IMG/VR virus record: IMGVR_UViG_3300020337_000002
DNA: 64,000 nucleotides
Reading direction: 5' to 3' (one strand)
From: an uncultured virus (IMG/VR IMGVR_UViG_3300020337_000002)
Taxonomy: Duplodnaviria > Heunggongvirae > Uroviricota > Caudoviricetes
The first letter of the stretch is position 1, and every line of letters begins with the position of its first letter. This document shows positions 51,370-53,638 of the stretch, in pieces. The notes beneath the pieces were generated by a model. The model did no database searches, was not told the origin of the DNA, and worked only from the letters and a program-made list of their open reading frames with translations. Both the position numbers and the translations under genes were made by a program.

Positions 51370-52536
51370 ATGTCAGAACTACTAGAAAGTCGCTGGCAGG
51401 ATACCAAAACTGCACTTTTAGAAGGCCTAAATGGTAATAAGAAAGCTGTAATGGCAAGTACTCTTGAAAACACACGCAAGTGGTTGAATGAGACTGCTAC
51501 AGCTGGTTCTACAAGCGCCGGTAATGTTGCAACTCTAAACAGAGTTATCCTACCAGTAATCAGACGTGTCATGCCGACTGTAATAGCCAACGAATTAGTT
51601 GGTGTACAGCCTATGACAGGTCCAGTGGGTCAAATCCACACATTAAGAGTACGTTACGCTGATTCGTCAGATGGTAACGAAGTTGGTGAAGAAGCATTAT
51701 CACCATTTAAGATCGCGGCGGCATACTCAGGTAACGCCACTGATGCAACACCTAAAGGATCTGCTACAGCGGCTCTAGAAGGTCAAGCTGGAAAGAGAAT
51801 GTCTATCCAGATCTTAAAGCAAACTGTCGAAGCAAAAACTAGAAAGCTATCAGCTAGATGGACTTTTGAAGCGGCACAAGATGCTCAAGCACAGCAAGGC
51901 ATCGATATTGAAGCAGAAATTATGGCGGCATTAGCCCAAGAAATTACTGCTGAGATCGATCAAGAAGTATTAGCTTCTTTGAGAGCTTTAGCTGGTACGC
52001 AAAACCAACAAGCATACGACCAGAACGCTGTAAGCGGTACTGCAACATTCGTAGGTGATGAACACGCGGCTTTGGCTGTGATGATCAACCGTGTTGCTAA
52101 CAATATCGCACAGAGAACTAGACGTGGTGCTGGTAACTATGCTGTGGTTTCACCACACGCATTAACTATCCTACAAAGTGCAACAACTTCAGCGTTCGCA
52201 AGAACAACTGAAGGTGCATTTGAGGCTCCTACAAATACTAAAATGGTTGGAACATTGAATTCAGCTATGAAAGTATATGTAGATTCATATGCCACTGATG
52301 CAACTGCAATTCTTGTAGGTTACAAAGGTTCAAGTGAATCAGACGCACCTGCGTTCTACTGCCCTTACATTCCTTTAATGTCAAGTGGCGTAGTACTAGA
52401 TCCGTCTAGCTTTGAGCCAGTAGTTAGCTTTATGACAAGATACGGTTATGTTGAGTTAAACAACACAGCATCATCTCTTGGTAATGCGGCAGACTACTTA
52501 GGTACAGTTACTATTGCGAACGTAACATTTAGCTAA
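51370..52536 (+). CDS. gp23: major capsid protein, T4 gp23-like
   Basis: RRVMP..IANELVGVQPMTGPVGQI, AKTRKLSARWT.E.AQD, YCPYIPL and MTRYG motifs. Confidence 0.97.
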   Translation: MSELLESRWQDTKTALLEGLNGNKKAVMASTLENTRKWLNETATAGSTSAGNVATLNRVILPVIRRVMPTVIANELVGVQPMTGPVGQIHTLRVRYADSSDGNEVGEEALSPFKIAAAYSGNATDATPKGSATAALEGQAGKRMSIQILKQTVEAKTRKLSARWTFEAAQDAQAQQGIDIEAEIMAALAQEITAEIDQEVLASLRALAGTQNQQAYDQNAVSGTATFVGDEHAALAVMINRVANNIAQRTRRGAGNYAVVSPHALTILQSATTSAFARTTEGAFEAPTNTKMVGTLNSAMKVYVDSYATDATAILVGYKGSSESDAPAFYCPYIPLMSSGVVLDPSSFEPVVSFMTRYGYVELNNTASSLGNAADYLGTVTIANVTFS

Positions 52537-52571
52537 TCCATAGGGTTAGTTACTTAATGTAACAAAGTATT

Positions 52572-52601
52572 AGAAAGGCCCTTCGGGGCCTTTCTTTTTT
52601 T
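52572..52601 (+). terminator. intrinsic terminator after the capsid gene
   Basis: AGAAAGGCCC-TTCG-GGGCCTTTCT followed by a T run. Confidence 0.92.
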
Positions 52602-52645
52602 ATGGATATTCTTTCTATTTTGGTAAACCTTTTTGCATTTTCTGG

Positions 52646-52674
52646 TTGCTTTTTGTAACTAGAGGTGCTATATT
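52646..52674 (+). promoter_or_regulatory. sigma70-type extended -10 promoter
   Basis: TTGCTT, 17-nt spacer, TATATT with TG-n directly upstream; predicted start near A52681. Confidence 0.7.
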
Positions 52675-52680
52675 AGTAAC

Positions 52681-52897
52681 ATAAGCATTAGTAGAGTAAT
52701 TAACTACTAATTATAGTGCAAGGAAGAGGCTCCTACCAAAAGAGTCGAACTTGACGGTCCAGGGGTGGTACCCAGGGTTTGTAGTAGAAATACGCAGGCT
52801 CACATCGCACTAACCCGCGGGGATCGGTTGTACGGTTTAGAAATGGTATTTCGGTCCGTGCTTGTAGGTGTACCCAAGTCCTACCTATTTTGCTTAT
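52681..52897 (+). ncRNA. candidate ~217-nt structured ncRNA, family unassigned
   Basis: Ends pair (ATAAGCA/TGCTTAT), nested stems, GAAA tetraloop, own promoter, no ORF with RBS. Confidence 0.65.
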
Positions 52898-52924
52898 ACT
52901 TTCTTTCCCCATTCCCAAAACTTT

Positions 52925-53010
52925 GATAAATACTTGTGTCTATAGAGCGAGTCGCCATACAGCGGCGGACTTATGCGGAATACCATCCGCGTAGACCTAG
53001 AACGTCAAAG
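52925..53010 (+). promoter_or_regulatory. late promoter box plus structured 5' leader
   Basis: GATAAATA at 52925-52932, hairpins at 52950-52971 and 52972-52993, then AAGGAG RBS. Confidence 0.55.
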
Positions 53011-53020
53011 GAGAAACAAA

Positions 53021-53638
53021 ATGGGAAGACCAATTAATAAAAAACACATTGGTGATGGAGCAGGTAAAATCCAAGTAACTGCGGTTAAATTCGCGGCAGG
53101 TGGAGAAATTACTACTGAGTCACACATTGTGAATCAAAGATCAGCAAATAAATTTACTGTTACAGACGGAAGTAAAACTGAAGTATGTACACTTGTTAAC
53201 AAGTCAATCGGTGGTTTAGGTGCTAGTGAATTTTGTATCAACGTTACAGACAGTGATGGTGTTACAAAACAAGTAACTAAAATGTTCAACAGAAAAATGC
53301 AACTTGAAGGAGCAACTAGACATAAATGGGCTAGAAACTCTGCAGGTGCATCTACGGCAGTTGAGAAAGTTATTTCAGGTGCTACAGCGGCAGATCCAGT
53401 TGTTATTACAGCAACAGGACACGGCTTCAGCAACGGAGATAAAGTATCTATCCGTGGCGTAGTTGGAATGGTTGAGCTTAACACTGAAACTGCATATACA
53501 GTGGCAAACAAAGCAACTAACACATTTGAATTATCAGGTGTTGACGGTAGTGGCTTTACTGCATACGGTAGTGCTGGAGTGGCAACTAAAGCGGCGGCTG
53601 AAGCTGGCGGCATTGTTGTTGACGCACAGGCATCGTAA
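53021..53638 (+). CDS. virion structural protein with E1-FCCH-like beta domain (possible head decoration)
   Basis: Start revised to ATG 53021 (AAGGAG RBS); ISGATAADPVVITATGHGFSNGDKV.I.GV.GM.ELN...Y motif. Confidence 0.6.
   Translation: MGRPINKKHIGDGAGKIQVTAVKFAAGGEITTESHIVNQRSANKFTVTDGSKTEVCTLVNKSIGGLGASEFCINVTDSDGVTKQVTKMFNRKMQLEGATRHKWARNSAGASTAVEKVISGATAADPVVITATGHGFSNGDKVSIRGVVGMVELNTETAYTVANKATNTFELSGVDGSGFTAYGSAGVATKAAAEAGGIVVDAQAS

Follow-up and report, generated by a model that had tools for sequence, protein, structure and literature searches.

Structured noncoding RNAs of phages and mobile elements that form RNA-only multimers include ROOL, GOLLD, OLE, and ARRPOF. The manA RNA has been an orphan “riboswitch candidate” since 2010. 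In the available portion of the work of Weinberg et al. (2010; PMC2864571), manA is classed as cis-regulatory and lies mostly in potential 5′ untranslated regions, and the available text of the S-CREM1 paper treats it as a putative cis-regulator. The canonical manA copy of cyanophage S-CREM1 starts one base after tRNA-Leu, and its end falls on the first base of tRNA-Asn; lying flush between tRNAs, it should also be released as a free RNA. The surrounding 900 nt of this phage (OP535465, 9745-10643, corresponding to positions 246-1144 of L141) are annotated with wcaG, manA, and abiF RNAs among four tRNA genes. A cryo-electron microscopy preprint (bioRxiv 10.64898/2026.07.01.735769) reports, in its available part, that manA RNAs form decamers and a 60-subunit cage built from pentamers. 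The pentamers are held together through L5-L7′ and L8-L9′ kissing-loop contacts, or through L3-L8′ and L5-L7′ contacts with an L6 GNRA-receptor contact. These assemblies consist of RNA only, contain 10 to 60 subunits, and were obtained in vitro, and the text available deals with structure only.

The window, a 64,000-nt stretch of DNA from an uncultured virus, carries a structured RNA in a 484-nt intergenic gap on the plus strand, between the major capsid protein gene and a gene for a protein of 205 amino acids (Table 1). As judged from sequence and consensus structure, this RNA is a divergent member of the manA family (RF01745), and its subfamily occurs widely among uncultured marine phages and also in the cultured Pelagibacter phage Mosig. 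What is new here is a manA core with a terminal helix and a promoter of its own, which in the window has no terminator and stands in tandem with a freshwater-2 leader. No description of the layout of promoter, closing helix, and terminator was found in the available manA literature, supplements aside.

Table 1. Features of the locus and loops of the RNA (positions are those of the window; R1 is a covariance model built from 82 distinct copies of the RNA)
Feature	Position	Strand	Evidence or remark
Major capsid protein gene	51370..52536	+	PHROG phrog_138 major head protein, E = 4.5e-103
Intrinsic terminator of the capsid gene	52572..52602	+	Terminator scan: 10-pair stem (52572-52595) with 6 G-C pairs, tetraloop, T run
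-35-like hexamer TTGCTT	52646..52651	+	Read from sequence; 3/6 consensus matches
Extended -10 TGCTATATT	52666..52674	+	Hexamer at 52669-52674, 17 nt after the -35
manA-family RNA including the extra closing helix P0	52681..52897	+	R1 scores 52679-52900 at 227.8 bits
Core matched by Rfam RF01745 (manA)	52689..52894	+	Model positions 1-192 of 192
C-rich, G-free spacer	52898..52922	+	10 C and 0 G in 25 nt; occupies the place of the relatives' terminator
Late-promoter-like element TTGATAAATAC	52923..52933	+	18 nt upstream of freshwater-2
freshwater-2 RNA (RF02980)	52951..53023	+	52.5 bits, cut-off 49.9; holds AAGGAG and the ATG at 53021
Downstream gene, 205 aa	53021..53638	+	E1_FCCH domain, Pfam PF16190, E = 1.4e-12
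Loop L3			UACCAAA
Loop L5			GUGGUA
Loop L6			GAAA
Loop L7			CUAACC
Loop L8			UGGUA
Loop L9			UGUACCCAAGU

The RF01745 model aligns with the window core over its full length at 50.3 bits, under the curated cut-off of 55.2, with E values of 6.2e-12 in a 601-nt search and 6.6e-10 in a search of the whole window. A default Rfam search at gathering cut-offs lists only freshwater-2 in the window; manA appears when matches are reported by E value. In the cmscan alignment, the conserved blocks of manA are found in place: the first hairpin is followed by AGUG, GGUGGU forms a loop, and the 3′ end reads GGU...UCC...CCU. In phage Mosig, an intergenic region that lacks annotation is 74% identical to the window RNA by blastn and scores 64.0 bits with RF01745, above the cut-off; this copy lies at 108158-108381 of MT647606.1. 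Two blastn queries against 50,697 phage records retrieved no other relative. Of 20 representative relatives searched with RF01745, 17 match at an E value of ≤0.001, and 4 of the 20 exceed the cut-off (L003, 57.9 bits; L019, 57.5 bits; L012, 56.4 bits; L016, 55.5 bits). The setting also fits manA, with a phage capsid gene on the flank, relatives on viral contigs, and presence in marine or seawater RNA libraries.

The likeness to manA thus spans the whole core with its conserved blocks and extends to the marine phage setting, whereas several features set the window RNA apart. Its score lies below the cut-off, and it has a 7-bp closing helix outside the model, which is absent from the canonical S-CREM1 copy (96.6 bits). 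It has a sigma70-type promoter of its own, while canonical manA lies within a tRNA array or immediately precedes a gene, and it is carried by a relative of jumbo phages rather than by a T4-like cyanophage. ROOL, GOLLD, OLE, and ARRPOF are different families of much larger RNAs and gave no significant match in the window, and ARAGORN detected no tRNA or tmRNA there. A weak partial match to ARRPOF was recorded at 52605-52785 on the plus strand (20.1 bits against a cut-off of 127.2, E = 0.012); it has the GCAAGG and GGUGGUA blocks in common with the manA core.

The gene order 5′ of the RNA is protease, scaffold-like protein, and capsid, and the best tblastn matches of the capsid protein are the major capsid genes of jumbo phages of 349 to 469 kb, at 67 to 71% identity. 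The DNA of the window is therefore that of a large marine myophage. By capsid identity, it appears to be a relative of jumbo phages. The cultured jumbo phages closest in capsid sequence (Vibrio phage 2.275.O and Sinorhizobium phage Phosso) have a gap of only about 100 nt after the capsid gene and no match to R1, and in the nearest related record (G001), R1 detects a manA copy. The product of the downstream gene matches the PHROG “major tail protein” (E = 1.5e-8) and, by tblastn, a portion of the Pelagibacter podophage genes for “tail tubular protein B” (42 to 44% identity), and is probably a virion protein. The region around the capsid terminator (52550-52602) gives a weak Rfam match to the terminator part of sbrA.

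A single exact pattern, made up of two invariant core motifs, was used to gather relatives of the RNA and yielded at least 119 viral contig stretches; sampled in this way, the relatives represent one subfamily and include many close kin. Each of the 81 sources searched with R1 yields a single copy (81/81), with scores of 86 to 234 bits. In the R1 alignment of 79 distinct rows, standard pairs fill 91.2% of cells (71.1% when columns are shuffled), and both sides have changed in 56 of 67 pairs (42.5 in shuffles), although these cell counts overstate the number of independent events because the rows are related and were chosen by one pattern. When the partners are slid by 1 to 3 columns, 35 to 47% of cells are paired and at most 31 pairs show double changes. 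The R1 alignment is fitted to the structure model; a plain MAFFT alignment that is not so fitted gives 90.7% paired cells and double changes in 49 of 67 pairs. In each of the 12 helices of the alignment, 68 to 100% of cells are paired, and the core fold comprises a 5′ hairpin, a long-range helix, a UACCA-loop hairpin, a stem around three hairpins, and two 3′ hairpins. The aligned sequences show this manA core fold to be maintained by compensatory changes. The structural support, drawn from these alignments, is comparative and does not come from single-sequence folding, which is unexceptional (z = −1.69 on the plus strand, where 13 of 200 shuffles fold as well, and z = −0.88 on the minus strand).

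A scan of 596 Gb of genome contigs with the same pattern gave 16 matches, only 2 of which (L136 and L139) contain the RNA; about 8 chance matches are expected by estimate in 596 Gb, so that the remaining 14 fit chance. L136 and L139 are contigs of 153 and 335 kb from one marine metagenome-assembled genome, which carry the manA and freshwater-2 pair with identical scores and, at this size, probably represent jumbo-phage DNA that was binned into a bacterial genome.

Most of the helices proposed in the preliminary description are borne out by the R1 alignment. The closing helix, ATAAGCA (52681-52687) with TGCTTAT (52891-52897), covaries in 7/7 pairs with 89.6% of cells paired and lies outside the RF01745 model, which begins at the first hairpin. 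The comparison shows this helix, P0, to be a 7-bp addition of the subfamily, in which the first base of the RNA pairs with the last. The TTAGTAG/CTACTAA hairpin likewise covaries in 7/7 pairs, and the GTA-GAAA-TAC tip belongs to a helix with 10/11 covarying pairs. Six of seven pairs covary in GTACGG/CCGTGC, though 81% of cells are paired; the inner GAAA/TTTC helix covaries in 4/4 pairs, though 68% of its cells are paired; and GTAGG/CCTAC is paired in 100% of cells, with covariation in 3/5 pairs. Two of the proposed helices fail in the relatives. The middle pairs of TAGTGC/GCACTA are standard in only 31/79 and 30/79 sequences, and the true enclosing helices in its place are TATAG/CTAT and CGGTCC/GGATCG, while one pair of AACC/GGTT forms in only 30/79 sequences. 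The pairing proposed between ACTTG (52749-52753) and CAAGT (52875-52879) is compatible in 69 to 79 of 79 sequences, a count in which the 5′ strand is fixed by the search pattern, and it stands in competition with a helix of two pairs in the Rfam model.

The composition of the element also stands as first described, with a G+C fraction of 0.456 against 0.367 for the window, and no open reading frame is conserved among the relatives. A coding reading was considered and rejected: the variability of alignment columns has no 3-base periodicity (0.81/0.74/0.81), and for the longest open stretch, the frame of the window is kept in only 16/79 relatives.

The promoter is most clearly seen in the relatives. 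At the position of the TTGCTT hexamer, these have TTGACA (45/82) or TTGACT (23/82), followed by a −10 hexamer of TATATT (42/82) or TATAAT (28/82) and, in 68/82, by way of a 17-nt spacer. Both hexamers have at least five of six consensus matches in 71 of the 82 distinct relatives with enough upstream sequence, most relatives have TG one base 5′ of the −10, and the distance from promoter to AGTGC core is 39 to 41 nt in 70 of 82. The promoter of the subfamily ends 5 to 7 nt before the closing helix. In the window, TTGCTT, the 17-nt spacer, and TGCTATATT place the +1 at about 52681, where the closing helix begins. A consensus promoter scan of the window called no plus-strand promoter at this site because the −35 matches at only three of six positions. 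The host-type promoter with its +1 at the first base of an RNA of about 217 nt, as proposed in the preliminary description, thus gains comparative support from the near-consensus promoters and fixed distance in the relatives. These features suggest that host RNA polymerase transcribes the RNA as an autonomous unit, and the promoter type points to expression early in infection.

At the 3′ side, a strong intrinsic terminator begins 10 to 16 nt after the core in 38 of 83 relatives, and a terminator scan of 52898-52950 in the window found none. The stand-alone character claimed for the RNA therefore holds in part: the comparative evidence supports a promoter of its own, but its own terminator, present in 38/83 relatives, is missing here. 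This is a difference from the stand-alone relatives (such as L003, L008, L075, and L077), which have a near-identical RNA (210 to 234 bits with R1), the same promoter position, and the closing helix but end in such a terminator, where the window has the G-free spacer. The five closest relatives (L018, L033, L079, L086, and L119) also have no terminator, their spacers are G-free in the part compared, and their −35 hexamers are weaker than those of the terminator-bearing relatives. The G-free spacer, from its composition, may be a Rho loading site.

The RNA lies, as first described, behind the terminator of the capsid gene (52572-52595 and T run) and ahead of the late-promoter-like TTGATAAATAC. 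Among the relatives, GATAAATA precedes the downstream gene in 22/83, mostly before the freshwater-2 core, and TATAAATA overlaps the 3′ arm of the closing helix in 31/83. By analogy with what is generally known of T4-type phages, these A-rich elements are likely to be late promoters. The freshwater-2 RNA is the immediate leader of the 205-amino-acid gene, contains its ribosome-binding site and ATG, and follows the RNA in 20/83 relatives (core). It shares the intergenic region with the manA-family RNA and recurs with this manA subfamily, but it is a separate, smaller motif with its own late-promoter-like element and lies outside the RNA described here. A literature search on freshwater-2 returned unrelated papers only.

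Sequences from the locus are present in marine RNA libraries. Among the 24 runs listed (10 studies), 17 RNA-library entries contain half or more of the words sampled from 52400-53300, and all 17 are marine or seawater. Contigs cover the RNA in 4/4 marine RNA libraries compared, from four studies; these data are assembled contigs, which carry no transcript ends, strand, or level and may include carried-over DNA. One contig (X1, 52874-53432) bridges the 3′ end of the RNA into the next gene, where there may be read-through, and another (X2, 52615-52876) also covers the promoter region, while 52596-52683 is uncovered in 3/4 runs. Contig starts at 52938 (X2) and 52955 (X3) and adapter-like loose ends at 52696 (X1) and 52885 (X3) would fit separate transcripts, but contigs cannot show ends, and these are not counted as evidence.

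The explanation that best accounts for the whole, and that is held with moderate confidence, is that of a manA-family RNA made as an autonomous early transcript by host RNA polymerase and acting in trans by self-assembly. A cis-regulatory leader or riboswitch, in which the RNA would sense a signal and control the gene at 53021-53638 on the same transcript, is an unlikely alternative that draws on the arrangement in the window itself: the RNA lies on the same strand, 124 nt upstream of the gene with no terminator between them, the bridging RNA-library contig joins the two, and Rfam classes manA as cis-regulatory. Its closing helix ends those 124 nt before the ATG with no riboswitch expression platform at the window RNA, and a late-promoter-like element and the freshwater-2 RNA with its ribosome-binding site lie between RNA and gene. 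A leader of this kind would be expected to precede a coherent set of genes, but the first downstream genes of the relatives fall into at least 12 unrelated groups. The largest are gp32 (28 loci), the freshwater-2 gene (at least 15), and two unnamed groups of 6 and 5; rubrerythrin and a cold-shock domain protein occur twice each, and radical SAM, redoxin, and others are single cases, in a census made with a simple open reading frame finder that returned nothing for 19 rows. A cytidylyltransferase/mannose-6-phosphate isomerase gene is downstream in three loci, behind a terminator, and these copies are among the 38/83 in which the terminator, constitutive in appearance, directly follows the RNA. 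The canonical cyanophage copy lies between tRNA genes and not before a gene. The unrelated downstream genes, the terminators, and the tRNA-flanked canonical copy together speak for an RNA produced as a free molecule.

The RNA could also be a transcript-end or insulator module, whose fold would stabilize or terminate early read-through or shield the late promoter with no role in trans. Its position between a terminator and a late-promoter-like element, the overlap of TATAAATA with the closing-helix arm in the relatives, and the U-rich, G-free stretch after the closing helix in the window are in keeping with such a module. A core of 200 nt with nine helices and conserved loops, however, goes far beyond what stability or insulation needs, this core is common to tRNA-flanked cyanophage copies that lack such a context, and loop-loop complementarity is enriched over shuffles (see below), so that this reading is considered quite improbable. 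A new RNA class unrelated to known families, as put forward in the preliminary description, is refuted beyond reasonable doubt: the default Rfam search gives no family at gathering score for this RNA, but RF01745 matches it at full length and its homologues in Mosig and in L003, L019, L012, and L016 are above the cut-off. That description had called the class unknown and had itself held that a match to a known Rfam family in cmscan would remove the novelty; run here, cmscan returns manA, and with it the claim of a new class falls. The earlier observation is largely right in other respects; the outcome for the window is chiefly corrective, placing the RNA in a known family instead of a new class.

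The loops of the window were matched to L3 to L9 of the preprint by counting helices from 5′ to 3′ in its available text. Within the window, L3 with L8 and L3 with L5 can form 5 bp, L8 with L9 and L5 with L9 can form 4 bp, and L5 with L7 only 3 bp. Across the 79 rows, at least four contiguous pairs per row were scored against shuffled loops, 6 to 15% of which reach this length. L3 and L8 do so in 58/79 sequences against 8% of shuffles, L8 and L9 in 44/79 against 6%, L5 and L7 in 26/79 against 6%, and L3 and L5 in 42/79; L6 is a GNRA loop in 43/79. Assigned in this way by helix order, the loops appear to carry the complementarities expected for the published kissing-loop interfaces. These complementarities are taken to act between molecules, although they could also be intramolecular. 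Outside the model, a screen by mutual information turned up mostly correlations at the level of clades, and the only suggestive pair is 52847 (loop 8) with 52872 (loop 9), which is U-A in 58/79 sequences and A-U in 13/79.

In the proposed mechanism, the closing helix would shield both ends of the primary transcript, and the RNA would act in trans by self-assembly, with its loops used as in the solved manA oligomers. The contacts would be made by UACCA of the third helix (52734-52738) with UGGUA of the eighth (52844-52848), by GGUA with UACC between the eighth and ninth helices, and by the GAAA tetraloop on the sixth helix. Since the window has no terminator, early transcripts would either stop in the G-free, C-rich spacer, possibly in a Rho-dependent manner, or continue through the freshwater-2 leader into the gene that follows.

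The comparative picture favors an RNA produced as an end in itself, given a strong early-type promoter placed exactly at its first base, a covarying helix that joins its ends, a terminator in almost half of the relatives, and unrelated neighbors. Phage Mosig offers a cultured carrier for expression and assembly work. A bolder generalization, put forward as speculation with little confidence, would be that manA RNAs are not cis-regulators at all but early trans-acting phage RNAs that assemble closed RNA particles, and that the window RNA may gather virion-protein mRNA. If true, the subfamily would define the ends of its RNA by a +1 promoter, a terminal closing helix, and usually a terminator, and the cyanophage copies would do so by tRNA processing instead. 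The loss of the terminator in the subclade of the window would then leave the assembling RNA joined to the virion-protein mRNA, and the attached message could be drawn into the RNA particles.

Two further features were observed among the relatives. In the gp32 clade (L005, L006, L022, and 25 other loci), TATAAATA overlaps the 3′ arm of the closing helix, and the gene for gp32, a single-stranded DNA-binding protein, follows after a leader of about 60 to 70 nt; with the element in this position, early and late gp32 transcripts would differ by the whole manA RNA. Rfam finds no glutamine riboswitch in the whole window, and close relatives have one (RF01739, 43 to 60 bits, above the cut-off) about 150 to 300 nt upstream of manA, at 1863-1912 (−) in L018, 1120-1169 (+) in L079, 1846-1895 (−) in L003, 1270-1317 (+) in L045, and 1708-1754 (−) in L040. 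With these riboswitches nearby, the region looks like a collecting place for RNA modules.
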